Below are positions 8,910-40,777 of a stretch of 64,000 nt of DNA, piece after piece (the stretch's first letter is position 1; each line of letters starts with the position of its first letter). A program made the translations under genes and the position numbers. The notes beneath the pieces are model-generated. The model was not told the origin of the DNA, ran no database searches, and was given only the letters and a program-made list of their open reading frames with translations. The DNA is from Phyllobates terribilis (taxonomy: Eukaryota): contig NW_027362764.1 of the NCBI RefSeq assembly GCF_046119375.1, forward strand, positions 48,174,001 to 48,238,000, read 5' to 3'.

Positions 8910-11432
8910 CAGTACAGACCAAAAGTTTGGACACACCTTCTCATTTAAAGATTTTTCGGTAGTTTCTTGAGTATGAAAATTGTACATTCACACTGAAGGC
9001 ATCAAAACTATGAATTAACACATGTGGAATTATATACTTAACAAAAAAGTGTGAAACAACTGAAAATATGTCTTATATTCTAGGTTCTTCAAAGTAGCCA
9101 CCTTTTGCTTTGATGACTGCTTTGCACACTCTTGGCATTCTCTTGATGAGCTTCAAGAGGTAGTCACCGGAAATGGTTTTCACTTCACATGTGTGCCCTG
9201 TCAGGTTTAATAAGTGGGATTTCTTGCCTTATAAATGGGGTTGGGACCATCAGTTGTGTTGTGCAGAAGTCTGGTGGATACACAGCTGATAGTCCTACTG
9301 AATAGACTGTTAGAATTTGTATTATGGCAAGAAAAAAGCAGCTAAGTAAAGAAAAACGAGTGGCCATCATTACTTTAAGAAATGAAGATCAGTCAGTGCG
9401 AAAAATTGGGAAAACTTTGAAAGTGTCCCCAAGTGCAGTTGCAAAAACCATCAAGCGCTACAAAGAGACTGGCTCACATGTGGACCGCCCCAGGAAAGGA
9501 AGACCAAGAGTCACCTCTTGTAGCATCGGCGTCTCTGCCCCCTGCCAGGCAGAGACGCCGTCCCACTCACCTCCTCGCTCCCCGCGCTCCCCGCTCTGTG
9601 TTCTCCAGCGCTCCTCTTCCTGCTGCCGGCGCGCGCAGCTCCCCGGGCACTGTGCTTAGGGCGCGCGCGCTCCCTCCCTCTTAAAGGGGCCGCGCGCGCC
9701 GTCCTAAGGAGTCCCCGGCCAATAGCTGAGGGTCCTCCCATATATAAGGCACCTCCTCCAAAATGGAGGTGCCCGAGCAATAGTTGTTGCACAGTGTTAC
9801 TTACCTCTGCTTCAGCCCTCAAGTCCCGCTGCTAGCCTGACTACTAGTCCTGCCAGCCTTTTACCTGCCTGTTACCTGCCTGGTACCTGCCCGGTTCCTG
9901 CCATGTCTGCCAGCCCACTTACCTGGAAGCACCTGCCTGTTACCTGTCTGTTACCTGCCGTGCCTACCTGGAGACCCCTGCCGTCACTTGCCGTGACCAC
10001 CTGTCAGCCTACCCGGAGGCTCCTGCCCGTCTCTTGCCGTGACCACCTGACAGCCTACCTAGAGGCTCCTGCCGTCACTTGCTGTGACCACCTGTCAGCC
10101 TACCTAGAGGCTCTCGCCTGTCGCCTGCCGTGTCTGCCAGTTCATCCACCAGGACCACTCGTCAGCCTGCCTGCTGTGCCCATCCGCTATACCGGTCAGT
10201 CCCAGCCATCTGACCCGTGGGAGTCACCTGCTCTCTTACAAGGTCGTCCCCAGAGTAGCACCTGGTCCCTCGGCTCGGTCCCTCCCAGGTCACCGAGCCG
10301 TTAGCCGCCGTACGACCAGGGTCGGTCCGGGTTGATACTTAGTTACGCCCCTCTGAGTCCCTCCTTGCACCGCAGCACAGAGGTTCCACCTCCCGGGTCC
10401 GTAACACCTCTGCTTCTGAGGATAAGTTTATCCGAGTCACCAGCCTCAGAAATCGCAGGTTAACAGCAGCTCAGATTAGAGACCAGGTCAATGCCACACA
10501 GAGTTCTAACAGCAGACACGTCTCTTCAACAACTGTTAAGAGGAGACTTTGTGCAGCAGGCCTTCATGGTAAAATAGCTGCTAGGAAACCACTGCTAAGG
10601 TCAGGCAACAAGCAGAAGAGACTTGTTTGGGCTAAAGAACACAAGGAATGGACATTAGACCAGTGGAAATCTGTGCTTTGGTCTGATCAGTCCAAATTTG
10701 AGATCTTTGGTTCCAACCACCGTGTCTTTGTGCGACGCAGAAAAGGTGAACGGATGGAGTCTACATGCCTGGTTCCCACCGTGAAGCATGGAGGAGGAGG
10801 TGTGATGGTGTGGAGGTGCTTTGCTGGTGACACTGTTGGGGATTTATTCAAAATTGAAGGCATACTGAACCAGCATGGCTACCACAGCATCTTGCAGAGG
10901 CATGCTATTCCATCCGGTTTGCGTTTAGTTGGACCATCATTTATTTTTAAACAGGACAATGACCCCAAACACACCTCCAGGCTGTGTAAGGGCTATTTGA
11001 CCAAGAAGGAGAGTGATGGGGTGCTACACCAGATGACCTGGCCTCCACAGGCACCAGACCTGAACCCAATCGAGATGGTTTGGGGTGAGCTGGACCGCAG
11101 AGTGAAGGCAAAAGGGCCAACAAGTGCTAAGCATCTCTGGGAACTCCTTCAAGATTGTTGGAAGACCATTTCCGGTGACTACCTCTTGAAGCTCATCAAG
11201 AGAATGCCAAGAGTATGCAAAGCAGTCATCAAAGCAAAAGGTGGCTACTTTGAAGAACCTAGAATATAAGACATATTTTCAGTTATTTCACACTTTTTTG
11301 TTAAGTATATAATTCCACATGTGTTAATTCATAGTTTTGATGCCTTCAGTGTGAATGTACAATTTTCATAGTCATGAAAATACAGAAAAATCTTTAAATG
11401 AGAAGGTGTGTCCAAACTTTTGGTCTGTACTG
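8910..11432 (+). mobile_element. DD38E Tc1 transposon, copy 3, interrupted by a solo LTR
   Basis: TA-flanked TIR ends at 8910 and 11432. The transposase reads 9324-9518 and resumes after 10406 with no stop until 11269. Confidence 0.95.
9519..10406 (+). mobile_element. Solo LTR (888 bp) of a subfamily related to the Gypsy at 18698-25464
   Basis: TGTAG...TAACA termini with 5-bp TSD CCTCT (9514-9518 and 10407-10411). TATATAA at 9741 and GCCCGAGCAA at 9771, as in the Gypsy-1 LTRs. Confidence 0.93.
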
Positions 11433-18697: not shown

Positions 18698-19940
18698 TGT
18701 AACGGGTCTGGGAGGCGGAACCTCTGAGCAACTTATACAAGGGGGCGGTCCTTGTAAGGAAGCGGGTGGCGACCAGGGAAGACAGGCAGGCAGTCACAGC
18801 AGGTGACCGGGACAGTCTCTGGGTAAACGGGCAGGAGGTCACGGCAAGTGACCGGGACAGTCTCTGGGTAAACGGGCAGGAGATCACAGCAAGTGACCGG
18901 GACAGTCTCTGGGTAAACGGGCAGGAGGTCACGGCAAGTGACCGGGACAGTCTCTAGGTAAACGGGCAGGAGGTCACAGCAAGTGACCGGGACAGTCTCT
19001 GGGTAAACGGGCAGGAACGACCTGTGACGGCTGAGCCTCCAGGTAGGCTAGCAGGCAGATGGCAGATGAGTGCTCCCAGGTGAGCAGGCGAGAGTCTCTG
19101 GATAAGCAGGTGGTCACAGCATGTGACGGCGGAGCCTCCAGGTAGGCTAACAGGCAGGTAGCAGATGAGCGCTCCCAGGTGTGCGGGCAAGAGTCTCTGG
19201 ACTGGCAGGTGGTCACGGCACGTGACGGCGGAGCCTCCAGGTAGGCTAACAGGCAGGTAGCAGATGAGCGCTCCCAGGTGAGCGGGCAAGAGTCTCTGGA
19301 CTGGCAGGTGGTCACAGCACGTGACGGCGGAGCCTCCAGGTAGGCTAACAGGCAGGTAGCAGATGAGCGCTCCCAGGCGAGCGGGCAAGAGTCTCTGGAC
19401 TGGCAGGTGGTCACAGCACGTGACGGCGGAGCCTCCAGGTAGGCTAACAGGCAGGTAGCAGGTGAGCGCTCCCAGGTGAGCGGGCAAGCTGGTCCATAGA
19501 CAGACTGACAGGTGTCGGAAGGCAGACCGTCGGACCTCAGGCTAGCAAGCAGGAAAGCGGATGACAGGCAGGAATCAGGCAGCAAACTGGCAGGAGACTG
19601 GCAGGTAACTGACAGGTAACTGGCAGGTAACAGGCAGGTAACAGGCAACGGGACCTGAGGGCTGAAGCAGAGTAGTGAACAGTGCAACAACATTGCTCGG
19701 GCACCTCCATTTTGGAGGAGGTGCCTTATATATGGAGGGATCCTCCGGCCATTGGCCGGGGACTCCTTAGGGCGACGCGCGCGGCCCCTTTAAGAGAGGG
19801 GGAGCGCGCGCGCCCTAAGCACAGTGACCGGGGGAGAGCGGCCGCTGCAAGCAGAGCGGGAGGAAGCCGCCGGGCACGGAGCAGAGAGGTGAGGGGAACA
19901 GCGTCCCTGCCTAGCAGGAGGCAGGGACGCCGACGCTACA
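18698..19940 (-). repeat. 3' LTR of Gypsy-1 (1243 bp), with five 45-bp and five 99-bp internal units
   Basis: TGTAACGGG...GCTACA; preceded on the minus strand by the PPT. Confidence 0.95.
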
Positions 19941-21415
19941 GTACCCCCCCCTTTAGGCCCCCCCTTTTTTAGGCCAGACAGAAATTCAGCAAGGATGAGA
20001 GGGGCATGGATGTTCTCCCGGGGCTCCCATGTTCTCTCCTCAGGACCAAACCCCTTCCAATCCACTAGAAAAAAGGTCTTTCCTCTTACCCTTTTGGTGG
20101 CCAGAATGTTCTCTACCTCAAACTCGTCTTCAGCAGAAACCGGAGCAGGAGGCGTACCTGTAGACTTGGAAAAGGAGTTAAGTACCACGGGTTTGAGAAG
20201 AGATACATGGAAGGAGTTAGGGATCCGTAAGTTGGCCGGGAGTTTCAATTTATAGGCCACCGGGTTGATCTGTTTGATAACCTCCAGTGGGCCGATGAAC
20301 CGAGGCCCTAACTTATAGGAAGGAATCTTGAGCCGGACATATTTGGATGAGAGCCAGACTTTATCTCCGGGACGAAATTGTGGGGAATCCAGGCGTTTTT
20401 TGTCGGCGTGTCTCTTCATCCGCTCGGACGACTGAAGGAGTGCGGATCGGGTACTCTCCCAAATGGAGGAAAATTTGCTAACGAGAGATTCCGCGGCCGG
20501 GTTGTCCACAGAGGTGGAGACAGGAAAAGGGATCCGAGGATGCTGACCGAAGACTACAAAAAACGGGGATTTAGAAGAAGATTCGCTCTCGTGATTGTTG
20601 TAAGAGAACTCGGCCCATGGTAGGAGTTCCACCCAGTCTGAATGGTGGGCATTAACGAAGTGCCGGAGGTAACTGGTCAAATTCTGATTGATCCGCTCCA
20701 CTTGACCATTGGACTGTGGGTGGTAAGCGGAGGAGAAGTCCAGGGTGACGTCGAGCAGTTTACATGTGGCTCTCCAGAAGCGTGAGGTGAACTGAACCCC
20801 ACGATCCGACACCATGTGGAGAGGCAGACCATGGAGACGGAAGATGTGGTGGATAAAGTCTTTAGCTAGCTCGGGAGCAGAAGGGAGGCCTGGCAGGGGA
20901 ATAAAATGAGCCATTTTGGAAAAGCGGTCAGCGACCACCCAAATGACCGTACAACCGGCAGAGACGGGGAGATCTGTTATGAAGTCCATAGCTATATGTT
21001 GCCACGGGGCAGCAGGCACAGGCAGAGGAAGAAGGCGGCCGGCAGGCAGGTGTCTCGGAACTTTGTTGCGGTCGCAGGACACACAGGCAGAAACAAAGTC
21101 AATTACATCCTTGTGCAGGGTAGGCCACCAGTAGTGCCGGGTAATAAGCTGGAGGGTCTTTTTCTGACCGGCGTGCCCAGCTAGCTTAGACGAGTGACCC
21201 CAGTGTAGAATCTTCTCCCGATCGGACTCCGTTACGAACGTCTTACCGGGAGGGAGACGATTTAGGCCCACGGGGGCTACCTGCATTACTCTGGCGGGAT
21301 CGATGATGTGTTTAGGCTCCTCCTCAAGATCAGACACCAGAAAGGATCGGGACAGGGCGTCAGCTTTGATGTTTTTGTCAGCCGGACGAAAATGAAGAAT
21401 GAAATCAAAGACCAC
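19790..21415 (-). CDS. pol: Gypsy-1 pol, C-terminal part: end of RNase H, integrase (HHCC, DDE) and chromodomain
   Basis: Motifs KADALSR, GH..WWP..CVSC, IAMDF, SDRGVQF, NGQVER, GPF-like FIGP and the chromodomain FEVENIL..FLVDWKGFGPEERTWEP. It is separated from the upstream pol by a frameshifting deletion. Confidence 0.93.
   Translation of the reverse strand: MVFDFILHFRPADKNIKADALSRSFLVSDLEEEPKHIIDPARVMQVAPVGLNRLPPGKTFVTESDREKILHWGHSSKLAGHAGQKKTLQLITRHYWWPTLHKDVIDFVSACVSCDRNKVPRHLPAGRLLPLPVPAAPWQHIAMDFITDLPVSAGCTVIWVVADRFSKMAHFIPLPGLPSAPELAKDFIHHIFRLHGLPLHMVSDRGVQFTSRFWRATCKLLDVTLDFSSAYHPQSNGQVERINQNLTSYLRHFVNAHHSDWVELLPWAEFSYNNHESESSSKSPFFVVFGQHPRIPFPVSTSVDNPAAESLVSKFSSIWESTRSALLQSSERMKRHADKKRLDSPQFRPGDKVWLSSKYVRLKIPSYKLGPRFIGPLEVIKQINPVAYKLKLPANLRIPNSFHVSLLKPVVLNSFSKSTGTPPAPVSAEDEFEVENILATKRVRGKTFFLVDWKGFGPEERTWEPRENIHAPLILAEFLSGLKKGGPKGGGTVASASLPPARQGRCSPHLSAPCPAASSRSACSGRSPPVTVLRARALPLS
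19941..19970 (-). promoter_or_regulatory. Polypurine tract of Gypsy-1
   Basis: Minus strand reads AAAAAAGGGGGGCCTAAAGGGGGGGGTAC immediately before the 3' LTR TG. Confidence 0.85.
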
Positions 21416-23124
21416 CGGGCTTGGCGCGGGTTAAGTCTCTGGGCGCTCTGGAGATATGCCAAGTTCTTGTGGTCAGTGTAAATTATTACCGGGTGGAGAG
21501 CCCCCTCGAGCAGGTAACGCCACTCCTCCAGTGCCATCTTAATGGCCAACAATTCTCGGTCTCCTATAGAATAATTGCGCTCAGAAGAGGAGAAAAGTTT
21601 GGAGAAAAAGCCGCAGGTTACCTTTCTTCCGGAAGAAGATTTTTGGGTAAGTACCGCCCCAGCTCCGGAGGAGGAGGCGTCAACTTCTAGGAAGAATTGT
21701 TTGCTGCCGTCCGGACGATGCAGCACCGAGGCGGAGAGGAAGGCCTGTTTTAAGGAAAGAAATGCCTCCTCTGCTTCGGGCGGCCATTCTCTGGGGTTCG
21801 TACCTTTACGGGTGAGAGCAGAGATAGGGGCGGTCCGGGAAGAGAAGTGCGGTATGAACAGGCGGTAATAGTTGGCGAAGCCCAGGAACCGCTGAATAGC
21901 CTTCAACCCCTCTGGTCGGGGCCACTTCTGGATGGCAGACAGTTTCTCAGGATCCATTTGTAGACCTGTCTGAGAGATTATGTAGCCCAGAAATGGAAGA
22001 GAGGTCTGCTCAAAGATGCACTTCTCATATTTAGCGTAGAGGTGGTTCTGCCTGAGCCTGAGCAGGACCTGACGAACGTCCCTCCGGTGAGTAGGAAGAT
22101 CCGGAGAGAAGACCAAGATATCGTCCAGGTACACCACCACGCAGGAGTAGAGAAGATCACGGAAGATGTCATTGACCAACTCTTGAAAGACGGCAGGAGC
22201 GTTACAGAGACCGAAGGGCATCACAAGGTACTCATAGTGGCCGTCCCGGGTATTGAATGCCGTCTTCCACTCATCCCCCTGACGGATACGGACCAGGTTA
22301 TACGCCCCACGGAGATCCAGTTTGGTGAAGATTCTAGCCCCCCTCAGACGGTCAAATAATTCAGGAATAAGCGGAAGGGGGTATTTATTCTTCACAGTAA
22401 TCTGGTTTAGGCCTCTATAGTCTATACATGGACGGAGTGAGCCGTCCTTCTTTTTGACAAAGAAGAAGCCTGCTCCCGCCGGGGAGGTAGATTTCCGGAT
22501 AAATCCCCGGGCCAGGTTCTCCTCAATATATTCAGACATGGACCGGGTTTCAGCAGCGGACAAAGGGTAGATTTGCCCACGGGGAGGAGTATAGCCGGGC
22601 ATCAGGTCGATTGGGCAGTCGTATGGTCTATGAGGAGGTAAAGTCTCTGCCTCTTTTTTATTGAAGACATCCGCATAAGACCAATAGGGAACCGGAAGAC
22701 CGGGCAGATTGGCTGGGGTAGGAGAAGGACGGGCAGGACGAACGGGAACTAGACAAGTCTTATGGCAGTCCTGTCCCCAGCGAAGGACCTCTCCGGTCTG
22801 CCAGTCAAGCACGAGTGCATGTCTCTGGAGCCAAGGCAGGCCAAGCAATAGTGCGTGAGAGAGTCCAGGCAGAACATGAAAGGAGATGCTCTCAGAATGC
22901 AGCATTCCCACCTGTAGAGTCAGAGATTCGGTGATGAGTTGGATGGGATGTGGTAAGAGACCCCCATCCACGGCGGCGACAGATAAAGGTACGGCCAGAG
23001 GTTTGGTGGGAATGTGGTATTTTTCTACCAGGGATTGAGAGATGAGATTTCCAGCAGCTCCAGAGTCAAGTTGAGCCAGTTCAAAATAGCGGTTCTCTCC
23101 GCAGAAGATAGAAACAGACAGCAT
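21286..23124 (-). CDS. pol: Gypsy-1 pol, N-terminal part: protease, reverse transcriptase, RNase H
   Basis: Motifs LDSGA (protease), YLDD (RT), VDAS and TDHKNL (RNase H). The frame is open upstream to the GGGAAAC site at 23187-23193. Confidence 0.95.
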   Translation of the reverse strand: MLSVSIFCGENRYFELAQLDSGAAGNLISQSLVEKYHIPTKPLAVPLSVAAVDGGLLPHPIQLITESLTLQVGMLHSESISFHVLPGLSHALLLGLPWLQRHALVLDWQTGEVLRWGQDCHKTCLVPVRPARPSPTPANLPGLPVPYWSYADVFNKKEAETLPPHRPYDCPIDLMPGYTPPRGQIYPLSAAETRSMSEYIEENLARGFIRKSTSPAGAGFFFVKKKDGSLRPCIDYRGLNQITVKNKYPLPLIPELFDRLRGARIFTKLDLRGAYNLVRIRQGDEWKTAFNTRDGHYEYLVMPFGLCNAPAVFQELVNDIFRDLLYSCVVVYLDDILVFSPDLPTHRRDVRQVLLRLRQNHLYAKYEKCIFEQTSLPFLGYIISQTGLQMDPEKLSAIQKWPRPEGLKAIQRFLGFANYYRLFIPHFSSRTAPISALTRKGTNPREWPPEAEEAFLSLKQAFLSASVLHRPDGSKQFFLEVDASSSGAGAVLTQKSSSGRKVTCGFFSKLFSSSERNYSIGDRELLAIKMALEEWRYLLEGALHPVIIYTDHKNLAYLQSAQRLNPRQARWSLISFFIFVRLTKTSKLTPCPDPFWCLILRRSLNTSSIPPE

Positions 23125-23147
23125 CAGGGATGGAGAGGGTTTACTTT

Positions 23148-23193
23148 TGTCTAGGGCGACCTCTCTGAGCGATCCTAGACACAGGCGTTTCCC
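23148..23193 (-). promoter_or_regulatory. -1 programmed ribosomal frameshift signal between gag and pol
   Basis: Slippery G GGA AAC, a 5-nt spacer, then stem TGTCTAGG/CCTAGACA. The -1 frame runs without a stop into pol. Confidence 0.8.
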
Positions 23194-24125
23194 GACCTCT
23201 CAGGGCAGGAACGGATCCGGTGCTCCTTACTGCCACAGTAGAAACAGCTCCCCTCGGCACGACGTAAGTCTTGACGGGTCTTGACCATCTTGGTCTGGTC
23301 GACCTGCATAGGCTCAGGTGAGTGTGCCTGGGGAGTAACAGAGGGAGTGACGGGTCTCTGGAAGGTAGGGACTAGACGTGGAATCCTCCTCTCACGGGTG
23401 ACCTCCCTGGCGCGCTCCTGGAACCGGATGTCAATCCGGGTGGCAAGTGTAATCAAGTCGTCGAGAGTGGTAGGAATGTCCCGACCGGCGAGTTCATCTT
23501 TAATACGGCCAGACAGACCCTCCCAGAAGACGGACACCAGGGCGTCGTTATCCCAGGCCAGCTCCGAAGCAAGGGTACGGAACCGTATGGCATATTGGCC
23601 CACGGTGAGACTCCCTTGACGGAGGCGTAGCAGAGATGAGGTGGATGAGGTCCTCCGTCCGGGTTCGTCGAAGACCTTCCGGAAAGCCGTGAGAAAGGCT
23701 GGCAGGTCGGACACCAGAGGGTCTCCTCTCTCCCATAGAGGATTTAGCCAAGCCAGTGCCTCTCCCGTGAGATGGGACATGATGAAGGCTACTTTGGCCC
23801 GGTCGGAATTAAACTGGTGGGACTGGTGTTCAAAGTGCAGGGTGCACTGGTTAATGAAGCCCCGAGCTTGAGCGGAGTCGCCTCCGAAGCGAGGAGGTGC
23901 AGAAAGCCGGATTCCAGAGCAGGATACTATGGTATTGGTGGGCAGCGGAGCAGCCGGGCTGCGAGTCATGACACTAGCGGTGGTTGCTGGTGGGGCAGTC
24001 AAAGTGTCCAGGCGAGTATTGACATTCCGCAGGTGACCCAGGATGGACTCCTGTTGGGACCTCTGTCGGGACAGTTCATGACAAAGGTCCGAGAGCGAGG
24101 GAGCTTGGGTGCCACCGGGTTCCAT
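23175..24125 (-). CDS. gag: Gypsy-1 gag (316 aa)
   Basis: Sushi-type gag with PEPMQVD and a zinc knuckle CFYCGSKEHRIRSC. Confidence 0.94.
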   Translation of the reverse strand: MEPGGTQAPSLSDLCHELSRQRSQQESILGHLRNVNTRLDTLTAPPATTASVMTRSPAAPLPTNTIVSCSGIRLSAPPRFGGDSAQARGFINQCTLHFEHQSHQFNSDRAKVAFIMSHLTGEALAWLNPLWERGDPLVSDLPAFLTAFRKVFDEPGRRTSSTSSLLRLRQGSLTVGQYAIRFRTLASELAWDNDALVSVFWEGLSGRIKDELAGRDIPTTLDDLITLATRIDIRFQERAREVTRERRIPRLVPTFQRPVTPSVTPQAHSPEPMQVDQTKMVKTRQDLRRAEGSCFYCGSKEHRIRSCPERSGNACV

Positions 24126-24126
24126 G

Positions 24127-24136
24127 GCCCGAGCAA
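24127..24136 (-). promoter_or_regulatory. Non-tRNA primer-binding site (self-priming type)
   Basis: TTGCTCGGGC lies 2 nt after the 5' LTR and is the exact complement of GCCCGAGCAA located 30 nt downstream of the LTR TATA box. Confidence 0.8.
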
Positions 24137-24138
24137 AC

Positions 24139-25464
24139 TGTAACGGGTCTGGGAGGCGGAACCTCTGAGCAACTTATACAAGGGGGCGGTCCTTGTAAGG
24201 AAGCGGGTGGCGACCAGGGAAGACAGGCAGGCAGTCACAGCAGGTGACCGGGACAGTCTCTGGGTAAACGGGCAGGAGGTCACGGCAAGTGACCGGGACA
24301 GTCTCTGGGTAAAGGGGCAGGAGATCACAGCAAGTGACCGGGACAGTCTCTGGGTAAACGGGCAGGAGGTCACGGCAAGTGACCGGGACAGTCTCTGGGT
24401 AAACGGGCAGGAGGTCACAGCAAGTGACCGGGACAGTCTCGGGGTAAACAGGCTGGTATGACCTGTGACGGCTGAGCCTCCAGGTAGGCTAGCAGGCAGA
24501 TGGCAGATGAGTGCTCCCAGGTGAGCAGGCGAGAGTCTCTGGATAAGCAGGTGGTCACAGCATGTGACGGCGGAGCCTCCAGGTAGGCTAACAGGCAGGT
24601 AGCAGATGAGCGCTCCCAGGTGTGCGGGCAAGAGTCTCTGGACTGGCAGGTGGTCACGGCACGTGACGGCGGAGCCTCCAGGTAGGCTAACAGGCAGGTA
24701 GCAGATAAGCGCTCCCAGGTGAGCGGGCAAGAGTCTCTGGACTGGCAGGTGGTCACAGCACGTGACGGCGGAGCCTCCAGGTAGGCTAACAGGCAGGTAG
24801 CAGATGAGCGCTCCCAGGCGAGCGGGCAAGAGTCTCTGGACTGGCAGGTGGTCACGGCACGTGACGGCGGAGCCTCCAGGTAGGCTAACAGGCAGGTAGC
24901 AGATGAGCGCTCCCAGGTGAGCGGGCAAGAGTCTCGGGACTGGCAGTTTGTCACAGCACGTGACGGCGGAGCCTCCAGGTAGGCTAACAGGCAGGTAGCA
25001 GGTGAGCGCTCCCAGGTGAGCGGGCAAGCTGGTCCATAGACAGACTGACAGGTGTCGGAAGGCAGACCGTCGGACCTCAGGCTAGCAAGCAGGAAAGCGG
25101 ATGACAGGCAGGAATCAGGCAGCAAACTGGCAGGAGACTGGCAGGTAACTGACAGGTAACTGGCAACGGGACCTGAGGGCTGAAGCAGAGTAGTGAACAG
25201 TGCAACAACATTGCTCGGGCACCTCCATTTTGGAGGAGGTGCCTTATATATGGAGGGATCCTCCGGCCATTGGCCGGGGACTCCTTAGGGCGACGCGCGC
25301 GGCCCCTTTAAGAGAGGGGGAGCGCGCGCGCGTGCGCCCTAAGCACAGTGACCGGGGGAGAGCGGCCGCTGCAAGCAGAGCGGGAGGAAGCCGCCGGGCA
25401 CGGAGCAGAGAGGTGAGGGGAACAGCGTCCCTGCCTAGCAGGAGGCAGGGACGCCGACGCTACA
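24139..25464 (-). repeat. 5' LTR of Gypsy-1 (1326 bp), with five 45-bp and six 99-bp units; TATA at 25250, predicted TSS ~25220
   Basis: Matches the 3' LTR apart from +99, -22 and +6 bp indels (net +83 bp) and few substitutions. Confidence 0.95.
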
Positions 25465-30014: not shown

Positions 30015-31007
30015 TTACGACCACATACAACTTGTCTTCCCAGTACGAATAAAGTTTTCCTGGACCACCTTTCTCACTTTGTTCTTGACTAGCACCCGGC
30101 TTCCCAGTGCCAATTCTGCTCCATAACATTTTCGATCATAGTACTCTCGCTCTGTCCTTGCGTAACCACTTTGAACCTTATGTATTATGCCTCTGCCATC
30201 TGTTCCTTCCATTTCTGAACGTCCTCTGTAAGTCTCTGACACCGGAGTATCGAACATGATGTCGATTGGCAGTCTTGGCGATCGTCCATACAATAGGAAA
30301 AAGAGTGAGTATTCCATTGCATCACTCTTTGTACAGTTATAGGCATGTACCACTTTTGACAGAGAACTCTTCCAGTCTTTCTTCTCATCAGCTGTTGAAG
30401 TGCGCAACATCGACAATAATGTTCGGTTAAAACGTTCCACTTGTCCATTACCCTCTGGGTGATAGGGCGTTGTGTGGGATCTCTGAATTCTACAGTACTT
30501 TCCTAGCTTGGTAAAGAGCTGGTTCTCAAATTCTCTTCCTTGGTCGGAGTGTAACCTCATAGGGAACCCAAACCTCAAAGCAAAATCATTGAAGATCTTC
30601 TCTGCTGCTGTTCGACCTGATTTATTGGTGGTGGCATATGCTTGAGCAAATCGAGTGAAATGGTCCATCACCACCAAGATGTATTCGTAACCACCCTTGC
30701 ACGTCTTGAGATGTAGAAAGTCTATTGAGACCATCTCAGACGGATACGTACTTTGGATGTTGCCCATAGGTGCCTGGGTTGATGTGTTGGGACGTTTATC
30801 TTTCAGACACCCACACTCCCTCATCACGTACCTCTCAATATCTCTCTGCATGTATGGCCAGAAGAAACGTTCACGGATCAAATTTGTTGTCCTTTCCACT
30901 TCCAGGTGTCCCATGTTTTCATGGAGTTCTTTGAAGACCAACCTACGGAATACTCTGGTTAGTACCAACTTCCGGTTTTGTCCTCCTTTACAGGATACTG
31001 TCTTCAC
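30015..31007 (-). pseudogene. Integrase of the old Gypsy
   Basis: Motifs HENMGH..FFWP..CGC, SIDFL, LHSDQGREFEN and NGQVERFNRTL; the C-terminus is frameshifted. Confidence 0.9.
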
Positions 31008-31876
31008 TGAGGTAGAGCTTCGTCCATTCTTTAATCAAAACAGATACTGCTGGTGACTCATTGTCTCTCTCCCGTTTACTTGGAAACTGATTTTGGTCCA
31101 CATAAAGTAGTATTCTACCAATTATCTGATCTTCCCGTTGTGCTCTACGGATTTTCCCTTTTGATAGTTGTTGAATAGACCTCCCCTATCTATCTAGACC
31201 TATCTAAGGTCTATCTTGTTCTCTCGCTTTTATGGTGGTTTCCACCATCAACGGACACCACAATGGTGTGTCTTCCTCCTGATAAGCTTGTACTACTTGA
31301 GTAGTGCTCTCAATTGCTTCCAGACTGACCTCCTCTGAGCATTCTTGCATGAACTCCTCAGGCTCTAGTGGCATTCTTGACAATCCGGCAGCATCAGCAT
31401 TGCATTTTCCTGGCCTGTACTTCATGCTGAAATTGAAGTCAGTGTTGTGATCTGCTACAGGGACTAAGCAAAGACAGGAGAACTGTCCCTACAATAGAAC
31501 TAAACTAGATCCCTACGATGTAACGGGGAACCTGATCCTGCGATCAGACCCGCTAAAGTCCTCGGCTAGTCTGAACGAAGACCTATAGATGTGAGGGAGG
31601 GATCCCTACAAGAACTAGGGACTGGGATAAGTTGGACACCTCCTAGCAGAAATAGTAGCAGTCAAAGACAAACACACAACAAAAAGCATAGAGGTCAGAA
31701 GACCTAGCAAAACTAACAGAGAACGGCAACAGAGCACCAAGCTAGCTCAAGAGTAGTAAATACAATGAAGTCCAGCAAGACCAGGAGGGCGGAGCCGGAT
31801 TAAATAGGCAAAAATGGTCATGTGACCAGCAAACTAAAAAAAAACTAACAGGAGCGTTCTAACAGTACCCCCTCTT

Positions 31877-34800
31877 CTAAGAGGATCCTCCGGATCCCCT
31901 AGGCCCAGGCTTACCAGGAAACCTCCTGTGAAACGCTCTGACAAGTCTGGAAGCAGAAACATCATCCGCCCTCACCCATGAGTTATCCTCACGTCCGAAA
32001 CCCTTCCAAGCGACGAGATACTGCAAACTCCCTCTATACCGTCTAGAATTTAGGATGCGGGAAATTTCATATTCCCCGTCCTCCACCACCGGAGGAACAG
32101 TGGCAGAGGCGTCACCATCAGACACATCAGATTTTTTCAACAGAGAAACATGAAACACCGGGTTAATCTTCCAGGATGTAGGAACCTCCAACCTAACAGC
32201 AGATTGGTTAACTATCTGAAGCACCTTAAAGGGCCCTACGAACTTGGGACCCAATTTTTTAGAAGGAATCCTCAATCGCAGATTCTTAGAGGACAACCAA
32301 ACCATGTCACCAACAGCAAACAAAACCTCTTGCCGTTTCCTATCAAAGTACCTCTTAGATTTTTTGTTAGCCTCCTGAAGATTACCACGCACATCCGTCC
32401 AAACTCTCTCCAAATCACCGGAAAAACTCTCCTCCTCAGGCACAGCCGAAACCAATTTGGAGAATGACCCAAAAGACGGATTTCTCCCAGAACAACAAAA
32501 AAAAGGCGAACACCCAGCAGAAGAGGATGTATGGTTGTTAAGAGCAAATTCAGCAAGTGGCAGAAACTCAGACCACCCCTCTTGATTGTCTGCCACAAAA
32601 CAACGCAAGAACTGCTCAACATCCTGGTTCTTCCTTTCTGTCTGGCCATTAGACTCAGGATGATATCCAGATGAAAACGACAAATGAACTCCCAACCTGT
32701 CACAAAAGGCACGCCAAAAACGAGCCACGAACTGAGGTCCCCTATCAGAAACAATGTCAGTAGGAACACCATGTAGTCTGACAATTTCCTTGACAAAGGC
32801 CTTAGCGAGTGTCTTAGCGCAAGGCAGTTTGATGAAGGGAACCAAGTGACACATCTTGCTAAAACGGTCCACGACCACCCAGATGACCGTGAAACCTTCA
32901 GAGGGGGGAAGGTCAGTAATAAAGTCCATAGCCAGATGTGTCCAAGGTGCACTAGGAACCTCCAGAGGGCAAAGCAACCCCGCAGCAGGAGCATGCGAAT
33001 ACTTGGATCTAGCACACACAGTACATTGGCGCACCCACTTAATGACTTCCTTCTGCCATCCAGGCCACCAAAAACTGCGACCCACAAGTCTCTTGGTCTC
33101 AGAAATTCCTGGATGACCTGCCAACCGAGACTCATGACACTCAACAAACAAATCTCTCCTAAAGGTCCTAGGCACAAACAACCTCCCATGGGGAGTGTTA
33201 GATGGGGCATTCTCCTGAGCTTTAAGAATCTCATCCTCCAAAACGGAGTCCAAAGCAGCAATCACAACACCTTCTTGTAAAATGCTTTCCTCTTCCTCCT
33301 CAACACCGACCATGGGAGAAAAGCTGCGAGACAAAGCATCCGCTTTAACATTCTTGGTACCCGGGATGTAAGTAACGGAAAAATTAAACCGCGAGAAAAA
33401 AAGTACCCACCTAGCCTGACGGGCATTCAAGCACTTAGCAGCATCAAGATAAATCAGATTTTTATGATCAGTGAAAACCTGAATGGGAAATTCAGCACGT
33501 TCCAAGAGGTGACGCCAGTGTTCAAATGCGAGTTTAATAGCCAGCAATTCCCAATTACCAATATCGTAATTAAGTTCAGTCTCAGAAAATTTTTTTGAAA
33601 AAAAGGCACAGGGATGTACTCCATCCTTGTTTTCCTGAGACCACACCGCACCGACCCCCACCGAAGAAGCATCAACCTCAACCAAAAATGGCTTAGTCAC
33701 ATCAGGCTGCATAAGGATGGGAGCAGAGGAGAACCTCTCCTTTAGAAACACAAAAGCTTCAATGGCCTCAGAGGTCCACTGAACCGCATTAGCACCTTTC
33801 CTGGTGAGATCGGTCAGCGGTTTGACAATAATAGAAAAAAATTTTATGAATTTTCTGTAATAATTGGCGAAACCCAAAAACCTCTGTATCGATTTCAAAC
33901 CAATAGGCCTAGGCCATTCCTGCACAGCTTGAACTTTAACCGGGTCCATCTCAAAACCTTCACTGGAGATAATGTAGCCCAAAAAACTAATTCTCTGTAC
34001 AGCGAACTCACATTTCTCCAGCTTAGCAAAAAGCGAATTGTCCATTAATAACTGTAAAACCTCACGTACGCTCCGCCAATGAGACTCCAGATCAGGCGAA
34101 TAAATCAGAATGTCATCCAAATACACAACCACATTTTTGCCGATTAAAGGTCTAAGGATGTCATTAATAAGATTCTGAAAAAATGCTGGAGCATTGGTAA
34201 GACCAAAAGGCATAACCAGATTCTCAAAATGACCCACAGGAGTGTTAAAAGCAGTCTTCCATTCATCACCCTCCTTCATGCGCAACAAATTGTATGCCCC
34301 CCGGAGATCAATTTTAGAGAACCACTTGGCCCCCACTAACTGGTTAAATAAATCAGGAATCAATGGCAGTGGGTAAGGATTGCGTACAGTAATTTTATTA
34401 ATCTCACGAAAGTCCAGACAAGGACGTAAACCGCCATCTTTTTTTTTTACAAAAAAAAATCCAACAGCCACAGGAGACTTGGAAGGCCTAATGTGACCGG
34501 CGGCCAAGCTTGTCTGTATGTATTCCTCCAAAGCCTTTCTCTCAGGAATAGTAAGATTAAATAAACGACTTTTAGGAAGAGTCGCTCCAGGGACAAATTC
34601 AATGGTACAATCATAGTCTCTATGGGGAGGCAAAATTTGTGACTCCTCCTCAGAAAAAACTCTCCAAAAATCCTGAATAGGTACAGGCAATTCCCCTCTA
34701 TCCACAGCAGCAATGCGCCCGTTACAACACTTGTCATAACACTTAGGGCTCCAGGACTTAATTTCATTGGTAGACCAATCCAGTACAGGATTGTGCAATT

Positions 34801-34999
34801 TTAACCAGGGTAACCCCAATATTACTGGAGAAGGCAAATTATCCAATACCACCAAATCCAAATTTTCTTGGTGAATACCATTAATAGTGAGGGGAAATTC
34901 ACAGACCTTATGAGTAACACTCTTCAAGGGAGAGCCATCAACAGAAACCACAGCAATAGGGGATGACAAAGTTTTAGGTTCTAATCTAAGTTTTTCCAA
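31877..34999 (-). CDS. pol: Gypsy-2 pol: protease C-half, RT, RNase H, integrase, chromodomain (open for 1040 codons)
   Basis: Motifs YLDD, VDAS, TDHKNL, HLAMDF, SDRGPQF, GPF and the chromodomain YEISRIL..YLVAWKGFGREDNSW. Confidence 0.95.
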   Translation of the reverse strand: MEKLRLEPKTLSSPIAVVSVDGSPLKSVTHKVCEFPLTINGIHQENLDLVVLDNLPSPVILGLPWLKLHNPVLDWSTNEIKSWSPKCYDKCCNGRIAAVDRGELPVPIQDFWRVFSEEESQILPPHRDYDCTIEFVPGATLPKSRLFNLTIPERKALEEYIQTSLAAGHIRPSKSPVAVGFFFVKKKDGGLRPCLDFREINKITVRNPYPLPLIPDLFNQLVGAKWFSKIDLRGAYNLLRMKEGDEWKTAFNTPVGHFENLVMPFGLTNAPAFFQNLINDILRPLIGKNVVVYLDDILIYSPDLESHWRSVREVLQLLMDNSLFAKLEKCEFAVQRISFLGYIISSEGFEMDPVKVQAVQEWPRPIGLKSIQRFLGFANYYRKFIKFFSIIVKPLTDLTRKGANAVQWTSEAIEAFVFLKERFSSAPILMQPDVTKPFLVEVDASSVGVGAVWSQENKDGVHPCAFFSKKFSETELNYDIGNWELLAIKLAFEHWRHLLERAEFPIQVFTDHKNLIYLDAAKCLNARQARWVLFFSRFNFSVTYIPGTKNVKADALSRSFSPMVGVEEEEESILQEGVVIAALDSVLEDEILKAQENAPSNTPHGRLFVPRTFRRDLFVECHESRLAGHPGISETKRLVGRSFWWPGWQKEVIKWVRQCTVCARSKYSHAPAAGLLCPLEVPSAPWTHLAMDFITDLPPSEGFTVIWVVVDRFSKMCHLVPFIKLPCAKTLAKAFVKEIVRLHGVPTDIVSDRGPQFVARFWRAFCDRLGVHLSFSSGYHPESNGQTERKNQDVEQFLRCFVADNQEGWSEFLPLAEFALNNHTSSSAGCSPFFCCSGRNPSFGSFSKLVSAVPEEESFSGDLERVWTDVRGNLQEANKKSKRYFDRKRQEVLFAVGDMVWLSSKNLRLRIPSKKLGPKFVGPFKVLQIVNQSAVRLEVPTSWKINPVFHVSLLKKSDVSDGDASATVPPVVEDGEYEISRILNSRRYRGSLQYLVAWKGFGREDNSWVRADDVSASRLVRAFHRRFPGKPGPRGSGGSS

Positions 35000-35958
35000 G
35001 AATCCCCCATCAATCCCCCATCAATCACATTCAGAGTAGAACCACAATCCACAAATACCCGAAATTCAATTAATTCATCCTGAGCAGCAGTAGTGGCAGA
35101 TAGGAATACTCCCTTAGAATTTAAACAGGCAATACGGGCATAACTGACCATTTTTTTTTCTTTCTTCAAACGAAGCACACAGTTCTTAATAAAATGACCA
35201 GAATTTCCGCAATAGAAGCACAAGCCTTCAGAAAGCCTGCGGTCTTTTTCCTGAGAGCGGGGTGGCATCGCCCCAATCTCCATCGGCTCTCCATTGTCAG
35301 CACAGACCCTCTCAAGACTCGGAGCTGACATAGCAGAGGATTTGCTCTCATTAACCCTTGCACGCAGTCTCCTGTCCACCCGTATAGCTAATTGCATAGC
35401 CTCCTGCAAGTTTCCAGGTGTGGGATAAGCAATCAGTAAATCCTTAACCCTTTCACCTAGCCCTGCAAGAAACAAGCTTTTCAAAGCTGAATCGTTCCAC
35501 CCCACCTGGGCAGACCACCGACGGAAGTGAGAACAATATTTTTCCACATTACCTGATCCCTGCCTCAAACGTCTCAATTCAGACTCAGCAGATGAGACAC
35601 GATCAGGATCATCATACAACAAACCCAAAGCAGAAAAAAAACTATCCACTGATCTAAAGCACGGATCACTAGGTTGGAGAGAGAAGGCCCATCCCTGAGG
35701 ATCTTTGCGCAAAAGTGACATTATGAACCCTATGCGCTGTGATTCATCACCAGAGGATCCAGGTCTCAAATGAAAATACAATAAACAAGCATTTTTAAAA
35801 GAAAAAAAATCTTGTTGTTCGCCAAAAAATAAATCAGGCAGACATACCTTTGGTTCCACAAAATGTGGTCCAGAACAGCTACTCACGTGTTGTTGGAGCT
35901 TGGCCACCTCCAGAGAGAGTCCCTGCAAGCGTTGAGCCAAATCTTGAACCGAGACCAT
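34981..35958 (-). CDS. gag: Gypsy-2 gag plus protease N-half; frame broken by an 11-bp duplication
   Basis: GEPMEIG and CFYCGNSGHFIKNC are followed in frame by FVDCGS. AATCCCCCATC is duplicated at 35001-35022. Confidence 0.92.
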   Translation of the reverse strand: MVSVQDLAQRLQGLSLEVAKLQQHVSSCSGPHFVEPKVCLPDLFFGEQQDFFSFKNACLLYFHLRPGSSGDESQRIGFIMSLLRKDPQGWAFSLQPSDPCFRSVDSFFSALGLLYDDPDRVSSAESELRRLRQGSGNVEKYCSHFRRWSAQVGWNDSALKSLFLAGLGERVKDLLIAYPTPGNLQEAMQLAIRVDRRLRARVNESKSSAMSAPSLERVCADNGEPMEIGAMPPRSQEKDRRLSEGLCFYCGNSGHFIKNCVLRLKKEKKMVSYARIACLNSKGVFLSATTAAQDELIEFRVFVDCGSTLNVIDGGLMGDSWKNLD

Positions 35959-36645
35959 GATGGAAAACTGGAGGTCTTTCCTTAGAGAAATTTTTTTTTT
36001 TTCTTTTAGGGCTGGACTTACTGTTGTGATCTGCTACAGGGACTAAGGAAAGACAGGAGAACTGTCCCTACAATAGAACTAAACTAGATCCCTACGATGT
36101 AACGGGGAACCTGATCCTGCGATCAGACCCGCTAAAGTCCTCGGCTAGTCTGAACGAAGACCTATAGATGTGAAGGAGGGATCCCTACAAGAACTAGGGA
36201 CTGGGATAAGTTGGACACCTCCTAGCAGAAATAGTAGCAGTCAAAGACAAACACACAACAAAAAGCATAGAGGTCAGAAGACCTAGCAAAACTAACAGAG
36301 AACGGCAACAGAGCACCACGCTAGCTCAAGAGTAGTAAATACAATGAAGTCCAGGAGGGCGGAGCCATATTAAATAGGCAAAAATGGCCATGTGACCAGC
36401 AAACTAAAAAAACCCTAACAGGAGAGTTCTAACAGTCAGCTAGTTCAGCGACCCAACTCTGACCCGTTGCATTCAGTTTGGCTGTAGTAAGGACATAGAT
36501 CAAAGGGTTGTTGTAAGTGTATACCTCAAACTTTTTGCTCTAGTAGAGATAATCTCTAAATCGTTCACAGATGACCTATTTCAATGCCAAAAACTCCAAT
36601 TTTCCGGAATGTAGATGGTAATTCTTCTCGGCGTCTGTCAACGTT

Positions 36646-38829
36646 CTAGAATGATTTCCCATTCAGTGAGTACTGGTGACTTCCATTTTTCCTTCCCATA
36701 TGTATGACCTTACATTTCTCCTCGTTAAACCTCATTTGCCATTTAATGCTCCACCTACCCAGCTTATCCAAATCCCTCTGTAGGTCTGCACTGTCCTCTT
36801 TTATATTAATTGTTTTACATAACTTTGTGTCATCTGCAAATATTGATATTTTACTATTTATCCCGTTGACTATGTCGTTAATAAAGATATTAAATAACAT
36901 TGGGCCTAGTACAGACCCCTGTGGTACCCCACTAGTGACGCTTACCCAATCTGAGAATATTCCATTTATAACCACCCTCTGCCTTCTATCCTTTAGCCAG
37001 TTAGCTACCCACTTGCAGACATTTTCCCCCAGCCCCATCATTCTCATTTTGTATACCAATCTATTATGTGGCACGCTATCGAACGCTTTTGAGAAGTCGA
37101 CATACACGACATCCACTGGTTCCCCCTGATCTACTCGAGAGCTAACCTCCTCGTAGAAGTCAATCAGGTTTGTTTGGCAGGAGCGATTCCTCATGAATCC
37201 ATGTTGGTTCGGGGTTAATAGATTATTAGCATCAAGATGCTCCATGATTGCCTCATTAATAAAGCCTTCAAAAATTTTGCCCACAACGGACGTCAGACTC
37301 ACCGGCCGATAGTTTCCGGTGTTACTTTTTGCTCCCTTTTTGAATATTGGCACTACATTCGCCTGTCGCCAATCAAGTGGTACAGACCCAGTCTCAACAG
37401 AGTCCTTAAATATAAGATATAACGGTCTGTCTATCACATTACTTAGTTCCCTTAGTACCCGTGGGTGTATGCCATCAGGTCCTGGTGATTTGTTTATTTT
37501 AATGTTACTGAGGCGTTTCTGTACCCCAGCTTGGGTTAGATTTGTCATACTTAGTGGAGGATTAAGCTTGTCACTTCTCATTTCGCCTGTTAGTTCTTTT
37601 TCCTTTGTGAAAGTTGACGAAAAAAATTTATTTAATAGATTAGCTTTATCCTCATCTTTCTCTATGATTTCGCCTTCATCACTTTTTATCGGTCCAATAT
37701 TATCCGATTTAATCCTTTTACTATTTATATACGTAAAGAACAGTTTGGGATTTGATCTACTTTCCCTAGCAATACGTCTCTCTGTTTCCTCCTTTGCTAT
37801 TTTTATTTGTTTTTTGCAGGTTCTCGTTTTTTCCTTGTAACACATTAGTGCCTCCTTGCTGTTTTCCTGTTTTAATCTCTTGAATGCCTCTTTTTTGCTA
37901 TTTAACGCCCCTTTTACGTTCTTATTCAACCATATTGGTTTCCTCTTATTTCTGGCCCTTTTATTCCCATACGGTATATACCTCTCGCACTGAGTATTCA
38001 GAATTCTTTTGAAGGTTTCCCATTTACTATTCGTATTTCCTTGATTAAGAACTTTGTCCCAGTCTATAAGTTGAAGGTTTTCTTTCAGCTGATCAAACTT
38101 CGCCCTCCTAAAGTTTAATGTTTTAGTTGTTCCCTTATTGATAACCCTACTGAAGGGCATTTTGAAATTGATAATATTATGATCGCTATTACCTAGGTGC
38201 CCCCCTATCTGTACCTCAGTTATTCTATCAGGCCTATTAGTCAATATTAAGTCCAACACTGCCTTCCCTCTCGTTGGTTCCTGCACTAGTTGGGAGAGAT
38301 AATTATCCTTGATATTTGTCAAGAACCTTTTTCCTTTCTGCGATCTACAGGTTTCTGTTTCCCAGTCAATATCCGGGTAGTTGAAGTCCCCCATTACAAT
38401 CACCTCATTATGTTTTGCTACTTTGTCTATTTGTCCTAATAGCAGTTTCTCATTCTCCTCTGTTATATTGGGTGGCTTATAGCAGACCCCCAGTAATATT
38501 TTATTATTATTTTTTGCCCCCTCTATCTCTACCCACATGGACTTGACCCCCTCTTCTCCCTCTCCTATATCTTCCCTTAGTCTGGGCTTTAGACGTGACT
38601 TTACATATAAGCAGACTCCTCCGCCCTTCCCCTGTTTCCGGTCCCTTCTAAATAAACTATAATCTGTTAAATTTACCGCCCAGTCGTAGCTATCGTCTAG
38701 CCAAGTCTCTGTTATACCTATGATGTCATACCTCTCCTCCGATATAAGCGCCCGCAGCTCATCCGCCTTATTGGTCAGGCTTCTTGCGTTGGTCAGCATG
38801 CAAGATAAAACTTTGGGGTTATTTAGCAT
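36646..38829 (-). CDS. CR1-1 ORF2 (APE endonuclease plus RT), 3'-truncated
   Basis: First ATG at 38829 (MLNNPK). Motifs GITETWL, MGDFN, SDH, PQGSVLGP and FADD. The frame ends at YSLNGKSF* where it runs into Gypsy sequence. Confidence 0.93.
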   Translation of the reverse strand: MLNNPKVLSCMLTNARSLTNKADELRALISEERYDIIGITETWLDDSYDWAVNLTDYSLFRRDRKQGKGGGVCLYVKSRLKPRLREDIGEGEEGVKSMWVEIEGAKNNNKILLGVCYKPPNITEENEKLLLGQIDKVAKHNEVIVMGDFNYPDIDWETETCRSQKGKRFLTNIKDNYLSQLVQEPTRGKAVLDLILTNRPDRITEVQIGGHLGNSDHNIINFKMPFSRVINKGTTKTLNFRRAKFDQLKENLQLIDWDKVLNQGNTNSKWETFKRILNTQCERYIPYGNKRARNKRKPIWLNKNVKGALNSKKEAFKRLKQENSKEALMCYKEKTRTCKKQIKIAKEETERRIARESRSNPKLFFTYINSKRIKSDNIGPIKSDEGEIIEKDEDKANLLNKFFSSTFTKEKELTGEMRSDKLNPPLSMTNLTQAGVQKRLSNIKINKSPGPDGIHPRVLRELSNVIDRPLYLIFKDSVETGSVPLDWRQANVVPIFKKGAKSNTGNYRPVSLTSVVGKIFEGFINEAIMEHLDANNLLTPNQHGFMRNRSCQTNLIDFYEEVSSRVDQGEPVDVVYVDFSKAFDSVPHNRLVYKMRMMGLGENVCKWVANWLKDRRQRVVINGIFSDWVSVTSGVPQGSVLGPMLFNIFINDIVNGINSKISIFADDTKLCKTINIKEDSADLQRDLDKLGRWSIKWQMRFNEEKCKVIHMGRKNGSHQYSLNGKSF

Positions 38830-38956
38830 CCTATTCTTCTCTAACGATCTAACTGTACTATCCCCACCCCCCTCTCCACCCTCATTATATTCACTTCTCC
38901 CCTTCCCCCTTGCTTGCCTCACATCCCACCTATTTCCTTGGTTCCCCCCCCCGTCT

Positions 38957-39883
38957 CTAGTTTAAAAACTCCTCCAACCTATTAGCCATCTTCTTCCCCA
39001 GCACCGCTGCACCCTCCCCATTGAGGTGCAGCCCGTCCCTACGGTAGAGCCTGTAGCCGACAGCGAAGTCGACCCAGTTCTCCATGAACCCAAACCCTTC
39101 TGCCTTGCACCAACTCTTTAGCCACTTATTCACCTCCCTAACCTCCCGTTGGCGCTCCTGTGTGGCTCGCGGGATTGGTAGTATTTCTGAGAAAACTACC
39201 TTGGAGGTCCTTGCCCTAAGCTTCCTACCTAGATCCCTGAAATCATTTTTAAGGACCCTCCATCTACCACTCACTTTGTCATTGGTGCCAATGTGGACCA
39301 TGACCGCTGGGTCTTCGCCAGCCCCACCCAGTAACCTGTCAACCCGATCCGCGATGTGCCGGACTCGAGCGCCAGGGAGGCAGCACACCGTTCGGCGATC
39401 CCGGTCTTTGTGACAGATTGCCCTGTCTGTCCCCCTAATAATAGAGTCACCCACTACCAGGACCTGTCTAGCCTGCCCTACACTTCCCCCCTCCCCCTCA
39501 TTACTGGAGCATACACTCCCCCGGCGGTCAGAGGATCTGTCGTGCTCCAATAATGCCGGTTCTGAACCAGCCTTCCTATACTTCTTCCCTCTATCCCTTC
39601 TAACTGTTACCCAGCTCCCTGCCTGTTCAGCCTGCGCTTCCCCACTAAGCTCCACCCCCAGTGTTGACCCATTGAGTGTCTGCTCGGTGAGCAGCAAACT
39701 CCGTTCCATGTTGTCGATGCTCCTCAGTACCGCTATCTGAGCACTTAGATCCAGGATTTGGGCTTCCAAGTGCACGATATGCTCACATCTCTCGCAGCAG
39801 TATGGATCCCTGAGCGGTAGCTCAGGGAATGCATACATTGCGCAAGATGTACACTGCACGGCTCCGGCCAACATGGACGTCAT
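38957..39883 (-). CDS. CR1-1 ORF1 (zinc-finger/leucine-zipper plus SGNH/GDSL esterase), 308 aa
   Basis: ATG at 39883 (MTSMLAGAVQCTSC...CERC). Motifs VVGDSII, HIGTND and DGLHLN. Confidence 0.92.
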   Translation of the reverse strand: MTSMLAGAVQCTSCAMYAFPELPLRDPYCCERCEHIVHLEAQILDLSAQIAVLRSIDNMERSLLLTEQTLNGSTLGVELSGEAQAEQAGSWVTVRRDRGKKYRKAGSEPALLEHDRSSDRRGSVCSSNEGEGGSVGQARQVLVVGDSIIRGTDRAICHKDRDRRTVCCLPGARVRHIADRVDRLLGGAGEDPAVMVHIGTNDKVSGRWRVLKNDFRDLGRKLRARTSKVVFSEILPIPRATQERQREVREVNKWLKSWCKAEGFGFMENWVDFAVGYRLYRRDGLHLNGEGAAVLGKKMANRLEEFLN

Positions 39884-39884
39884 T

Positions 39885-40777
39885 CTAAATATGGGGATAC
39901 AGTCAGTATATATGTACAAGTACAAAACACATTTATATATAGGTGTATGGACGGGGATCAATTAGGGATGTGCAAGTGTATCGATTAGATATCGGCGCGG
40001 GATCAGTTAAGTATGGACGGGGGATCAATTAAGTATCAATTAAGTATGGACGGGGGATCAGCTGAGTGGGTCAGGTGGATTAATTAAGTATGGACGGTGT
40101 GTCAATTAACTATGGACTGGGATCAATAAGTATGAACTGAGGAAATAATTAATTGTGGACTAGGGAATCAATCAATTAATTATGGACAGGGGGTTTAATT
40201 AAATAGGATGGGGGGTAAAGCAAATAAATAGGTATGGACGGTGGGTCAATTAACTAAGGACTGGGGATCAATAAGTATCAATAATATCAATAAATAAGGA
40301 CTGGGAAAATAATTAATTGTAGTCTGGGGAATCAATCAATTAATTATGGACAGGGGTTAATTAAATATGGTGGGGGATAAGGCAAATAGATAGGGACTGG
40401 GGATGAGTAAAAGTGGACAAGGGGAATCTATTAAATAGGACAAGGGGGATCAATCAATTATGGGCTGGGGGGGTCAATCATTTAAATGTGGTCAGGGGGA
40501 TCACTTTAATCACTTTAATATGGACGGGGGGTGGTCGGGGATCAATTAAATGAGGACGGGGGGGTCAATTTAATGTGGTCAGAGGGATCAGTTAAATATG
40601 GACGGGGGTGTTCAGGGGAATCAATTTAAATATGGACGGGGGGGTAATCAATTAAATATGGACTAGGGAATACAATACAATACAATACAATTACAATACA
40701 GATACAAATACAATACAGTACAGTACACACTTCGGTTCAGTAGGGCCGCTTATCGCGGCCTCCTGCCCCTCACTCAC
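39885..40777 (-). other. Candidate spliceosomal intron (893 nt) in the CR1-1 5' UTR
   Basis: Donor GAG|GTGAGT at 40777. Branch-like TACTGAC, then TGTATCCCCATATTTAG|A ATG. Confidence 0.6.

Follow-up and report, generated by a model that had tools for sequence, protein, structure and literature searches.

Self-priming, in which reverse transcription is primed by the element's own RNA instead of a tRNA, is an already known mechanism; in the excerpts of the literature covered, it is proven in fission yeast and only proposed for the vertebrate Tf1/sushi group. One set of sources, taken together and in the portions available, places the Tf1 cut between bases 11 and 12 and implicates self-priming from fungi to vertebrates (bioRxiv 10.1101/2022.12.06.519325, PMC7175516, PMC4600332, PMC6317226, PMC3601003, PMC7472051, PMC5341516). 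For the Tf1/sushi group, including sushi-ichi and Amn-ichi/-ni/-san, self-priming together with a 'pretzel' structure was proposed (Butler et al. 2001, through later citations). In plant Tcn1-clade chromoviruses (REXdb), the excerpted source predicts self-priming from an LTR complement of at least 10 nt that starts 0-5 nt after the LTR (PMC6317226).

The window analysed here, a 64,000-nucleotide stretch of the Phyllobates terribilis genome, carries an LTR retrotransposon, element 1, that resembles these systems. Like Tf1 and Tf2 of Schizosaccharomyces pombe and Tj1 of S. japonicus, as described in the available parts of the reports, element 1 features a chromodomain integrase, a primer-binding site (PBS) complementary to the predicted 5' end of the RNA and no TGG-type tRNA site (PMC7175516, PMC4600332, bioRxiv 10.1101/2022.12.06.519325). 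The predicted primer has 10 nt in element 1 and 9 nt in a second family, versus 11 in Tf1, and primer cleavage was shown for Tf1 whereas it is presumed for element 1. The gag of element 1 bears a CCHC motif, and pol overlaps it in the -1 frame, in contrast to the single ORF without CCHC of Tf1/Tf2 in the same partial accounts, which give a -1 gag-pol frameshift as typical of members outside fission yeast. Set against Tf1/Tf2/Tj1, the loop between primer and PBS is ~1.07 kb in element 1 and ranges from 282 to 1,172 nt among the fetched family-1 copies because the number of U5 tandem repeats varies. The excerpts describe two side helices in Tf1, which are only partly visible in the families of element 1; of the three-duplex 'pretzel' of Tf1/sushi, the central helix is present and the side helices are not clearly supported. 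As in the Tcn1 clade, the complement in element 1 reaches 10 nt and starts 2 nt after the LTR, although Tcn1 elements belong to a different host group and theirs is a prediction only.

Element 1 and its predicted self-primer

Element 1 lies on the minus strand, as do all of its features given below, and is flanked on both sides by the target-site duplication TACAT. Pfam domains were found for gag, protease, RT, RNase H, integrase, SH3 and chromodomain; by the order PR-RT-RNase H-IN and the chromodomain at the integrase C-terminus (PF00385, E 1.5e-11), element 1 is a Ty3/gypsy chromovirus. It is a putative member of the GyDB V-clade, the vertebrate Tf1/sushi group. LTR comparison delimited a 5' LTR of 1,326 bp (25464 to 24139, TG...CA) and a 3' LTR (18698..19940), which differ by 8 substitutions and 3 indels. 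The gag ORF (23175..24125) is followed by a first part of pol encoding protease, RT (YLDD) and RNase H (21286..23199), with GGGAAAC in the gag/pol overlap (23193-23187), and by a second part encoding integrase zinc finger, core, SH3 and chromodomain (19790..21430). The frame is broken before the integrase in the window copy, the RNA of which would therefore depend on enzymes made by another copy. U5 (24139-25030 and 18698-19490) is composed of 99-nt and 45-nt tandem repeats, the number of which differs among copies.

The sequence-only reading had placed a PBS almost directly before the gag ATG, and the recomputed layout agrees: the LTR end ACA is followed by GT (24137..24138), the predicted PBS TTGCTCGGGC (24127..24136), a single C (24126), which would lie opposite the primer's m7G cap, and the ATG (24125). 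The GT spacer of 2 nt mirrors the AC between the polypurine tract (19943..19954) and the 3' LTR. Such symmetric cDNA ends (AC..GT) were considered as a general argument and rejected, as they hold in families 1 and 2 and not in other families. The predicted self-primer GCCCGAGCAA, putative RNA bases 1-10, occupies 25211..25220 behind the TATATAA box (25244..25250). That the exact complement of the PBS begins 30 nt after the first T of TATATAA was also claimed earlier and was reproduced in both LTRs (boxes at 25250 and 19732, 10-mers at 25220 and 19702) and in a solo LTR of a related subfamily (9519..10406, plus strand, duplication CCTCT; box at 9741, 10-mer at 9771); the loop, then given as ~1.08 kb, was computed as 1,074 nt. 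The solo LTR sits inside a Tc1-like transposon.

With at most one mismatch, GCCCGAGCAA has exactly four matches in the window, 25220-25211 (minus), 19702-19693 (minus), 9771-9780 (plus) and the PBS itself. This count alone is weak, being reached by 8 of 100 shuffles, and the three LTR copies are homologous and amount to one observation, so the weight of the evidence rests on the position of the match, for which the chance expectation is 0.001 anywhere in the 5' LTR and 6e-6 in a 7-nt window.

The position also points to the start of the RNA. Among the 47 paired elements described below, LTR base -1 is a pyrimidine in every case and the first base of the 10-mer is G. From -30 to -24, A/T is found in seven to nine of nine family representatives, and at -23 in one of nine. 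In all nine 10-mer types the pairing ends exactly at this pyrimidine|G start, ~30 nt behind the AT-rich box. A TATA box followed by a pyrimidine-purine step is the layout of Pol II starts, and the 10-mer is thus probably the 5' end of the RNA, with a predicted start at G25220. Between the TATA box and the predicted start is a 9-bp inverted repeat (25243-25218 and 19725-19700, minus) that extends over the first three bases of the start; in the 3' R copy this repeat could make the 10-mer inaccessible to the PBS. The repeat includes AAAATGG, which presumably resembles a YY1 site. Family 3 has ACATGGCGGC at the place of the AAAATGG inverted repeat, and the other families have neither.

Pairing across chromovirus families

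The genome searched comprises 10.57 Gb. The pairing was examined in 120 ten-kb loci picked by Pfam score, not by PBS, together with the two window elements. Of these 122, 44 were excluded (31 did not combine gag with integrase, 13 had no LTR pair) and 6 more lacked an ACA end, leaving 72 scored elements. An exact 10-nt complement in the element's own LTR, starting at LTR end +2, was found in 47 of the 72 and none was longer, compared with 18 of 5,544 for the same test at other offsets. Offsets near +2 gave 6 elements at +1, 1 at +3 and none at +0. The perfect 10-mer was absent in 25 of the 72, some of which have miscalled LTR ends and some mutated sites. The best PF03732 matches (150 of 150) and most of the top 40 PF24626 matches fell on small unplaced contigs (C2755-C8306) with domain lengths unlike those of chromosomal matches; the assembly may include foreign DNA in these contigs, and the PF03732 top matches on them were left out of the analysis.

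The 47 elements represent nine different 10-mers in which 7 of 10 columns vary, all pairs are Watson-Crick and cross-family identity is 4-9 of 10. The 10-mer types track RT clades in a tree of 41 rows built from unnamed relatives only. In family 1, to which element 1 belongs, the 26-mer spanning the predicted start occurs 47,183 times in exact form, and LTR-PBS junctions with C number 17,105. Among 33 other close family-1 copies, 23 have both exact sites, 4 have the primer beyond the locus, 5 have a one-sided mismatch and 1 was unparsed. A mutation hot spot at primer +11 was looked for and was not evident.

A second chromovirus in the window, family 2 (31443..36434, minus), has an RT 65% identical to that of element 1. 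Its PBS AAGTCCAGC (36019-36011) follows GT, and the 9-nt complement (31776-31768) lies 30 nt after TATTTAA (31806); this 9-nt pairing was found in 25 of 30 unselected family-2 copies. In the window copy, a short deletion in the 5' LTR (36376-36340, minus) between two CTGG repeats removes the self-primer start; since the 3' LTR is intact, the loss probably came after insertion. The family-2 element interrupts the pol region of a further LTR element (30015-31442 and 36435-36700; integrase 30015-31034). The window further holds a LINE (36646-39961, minus) encoding an endonuclease-RT and an ORF1 with a GDSL esterase domain, as well as several Tc1-like copies that are nearly identical to one another. 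A long 35/36-nt satellite begins at ~40,850.

Relatives also exist beyond this genome. Scanning metagenomes with the RT gave 79 loci, 43 of them with enough upstream DNA, and in 20 of the 43 an LTR end and a short spacer are followed by a 10-11 nt site, the complement of which lies 30-34 nt behind a TATA-like box; these sites were chosen by eye among candidates, with the LTR end backed by an LTR pair in six. The 20 relatives add eight PBS sequences, and some of their primers begin with A instead of G. As for the other loci, L304 deviates by a G after the site, one is truncated where its contig starts, and no signature is seen in the remainder. No relatives were found in the viral contigs searched.

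Tf1-type self-priming with the first 10 bases of the element's own RNA is very probably the correct reading of these data. It had been put forward from the window's letters and is now supported by the chromodomain, by pairing kept with changed letters, by the sharp stop at a pyrimidine|purine start and by the LTR-complementary scars described below. In the predicted pathway, Pol II would start at G25220, and the capped 5' end would fold back across the 1,074-nt loop to pair with the PBS. RNase H, the domain of which is present, would cut between bases 10 and 11 by analogy with Tf1, and RT would extend the freed primer through GT into U5. Plus-strand synthesis would copy the still-attached primer to its 5' end, regenerating the PBS with a C opposite the cap, and transcripts starting one to three bases upstream would yield A, AC or ACC after the PBS. 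The Tf1 primer is reportedly kept on the cDNA.

The C that follows the PBS

Directly after the PBS, 46 of the 47 elements have a C, with A following in 33 of the 47. The same position is C in 30 of 30 unselected family-2 copies, of which 7 differ at the first base behind it and 10 at the second, and in 20 of 21 metagenomic relatives (the exception being L304). The LTR base opposite this C is a pyrimidine in all 47 and never G, so DNA complementarity does not explain it.

Rare departures from C were informative in family 1, where 197 junctions carry another base. Among the first 100 of these listed, counted by hand, 72 have A, 22 T and 6 G, whereas a control C in gag, also counted by hand, gave 17 A, 59 T and 10 G of 86; the Fisher p of 6e-13 for the excess of A is overstated since some copies are clustered duplicates. 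Of the 72 A-type copies, 20 were fetched: 7 have A for C, 2 have AC for CA, 9 have ACC for CAT and 2 have AC inserted, so that AC or ACC follows the PBS in 13 of the 20. A, C and C are the complement of LTR positions -1, -2 and -3 (T, G, G), which are present in the copy's own LTR in 18 of 18 readable cases. PBS+AC junctions number 94 genome-wide in family 1. Three different variants occur among four copies that occupy different insertion sites and differ from one another by no more than 0.6% over 900 nt of gag, and a copy more than 20% diverged has ACC too; the variants therefore arose repeatedly. Only comparisons between variants were used here, as a tree of variant versus canonical family-1 copies is biased by a canonical set chosen by likeness to the window copy.

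These scars are most simply read as recopying of the plus-strand PBS from the 5' end of the element's own RNA, with some RNAs probably starting further upstream. In L360, a family-2 PBS is joined directly to inverted U3 sequence of at least 61 nt that extends through the TATA box, and the element's own upstream LTR is truncated or replaced. In family 2 as a whole, 163 junctions are non-C (47 A, 45 T and 8 G among the first 100 listed); the variants are mixed and, with an A-run behind them, do not distinguish between the readings. Variation at +2/+3 behind the family-2 PBS, as examined in one subfamily of 9, did not clearly exceed the U5 background.

Whether the constant C is a copy of the cap stands at about even odds. 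The C would face the m7G in the folded-back capped RNA, and the fuller proposal, to which a half chance is assigned, is that RT copies the self-primer as far as the m7G cap and thereby rewrites the C in each cycle throughout the lineage, upstream-starting transcripts leaving the extra letters after the PBS. The AC/ACC ladder alone does not prove the cap step, because ACC can be read without a cap as the complement of -1 to -3. A nearly even chance is left to self-priming in which the C derives from ancestry, a role in RNA structure or an end-addition preference of RT. All families share a common ancestry, and MMLV-type RTs favour C addition at cDNA ends according to the excerpted source (PMC3877366). 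The bias of the next base towards A, the G of L304 and the uninformative family-2 variants fit this non-cap origin as well. Against it, the C is kept across RT identities of ~60-95%, over which 7 of 10 PBS columns and both bases behind the C vary, and it is kept with both G-starting and A-starting primers. A literature search, with the primary Tf1 papers and Butler 2001 outside its scope, returned no description of a cap-derived base after a self-primer PBS.

Other roles of the helix and other primers

RNA folding counts in part against the self-priming reading. Nested folding gave the primer-PBS helix a probability of 0.65 in element 1, at least 0.97 in three of nine representatives and at most 0.15 in five of nine; in a fragment of element 1 that is 7 nt longer, bases 3-7 pair inside gag instead. 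Nested models cannot represent a pseudoknotted side helix. For the side helices, a U5:leader helix had p <= 0.05 in five of nine representatives, all of one clade, and an R:U5 helix in one of nine. In element 1 the candidate is the U5 hexamer GGTTCC (24158..24163), facing GGAACC over the gag start codon, with a shuffle p of 0.08. One clade (L129, L134, L140, L144, L175) has an 8-bp U5 helix with the gag start region, in which paired letters change between families; in two of its families ATG is changed to AAG and the U5 partner is altered to match.

A purely structural helix, acting in packaging, in 5'-3' cyclisation via the 3' R copy or as a translation switch at the gag start while priming proceeds otherwise, is improbable. 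It would suit the adjacency of the PBS to the gag ATG, the candidate U5 helix that spans this codon and the presence of the same 10-mer in the 3' LTR, and template switching could also have produced the 61-nt run of L360. The helix nevertheless begins exactly two bases from the LTR end, where the 3' end of a primer must sit, it stops precisely at the pyrimidine|purine start, and no other primer site is present.

Even less credence is given to a host tRNA, tRNA half or other small host RNA binding the PBS, with the LTR match being secondary. Mature tRNAs end in CCA, and the earlier statement that a TGG-type PBS is missing proved correct, as the first TGG occurs 14 nt past the LTR end, within the start codon. 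This TGG was itself tried as a PBS and rejected for its distance from the LTR end and because its 18-nt complement is without the conserved T-arm C of tRNAs. A tRNA search against the PBS, proposed earlier with a negative outcome expected, was negative for tRNA-Lys(TTT), the longest complement being 6 nt in gag; the comparison extended to this sole tRNA type (Rfam search; 12 of 30 loci through ARAGORN, one gene compared), which leaves the host-RNA explanation some room. Large tRNA-Lys(TTT) gene arrays were observed on C1 near 817 Mb (spacing ~1.05 kb) and on C11 near 575 Mb. Half-tRNA priming does exist in copia elements, as the excerpted source states (PMC6317226). A fixed host RNA, on the other hand, does not explain why the PBS changes between families together with the LTR of each family.

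Chance complementarity in a GC-rich LTR (62% G+C, 1.3 kb) can practically be dismissed despite the insignificant 10-mer count in the window alone, because 47 of 72 elements pair at +2 compared with 18 of 5,544 at other offsets, the positional probability is minute and the ten family types have distinct sequences; by these comparisons the pairing is not chance.

Strong comparative support for vertebrate self-priming comes from ten pairs of primer and PBS that change in concert, in families whose copies number tens of thousands, and primer and PBS can change together because the PBS would be recopied from the element's 5' end. The rare AC/ACC copies are the nearest to a natural experiment on this recopying. 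The cap reading offers a cheap and sharp biochemical prediction and, if true, would make the start site, the spread of starts and the cap readable from DNA alone in any self-priming element.
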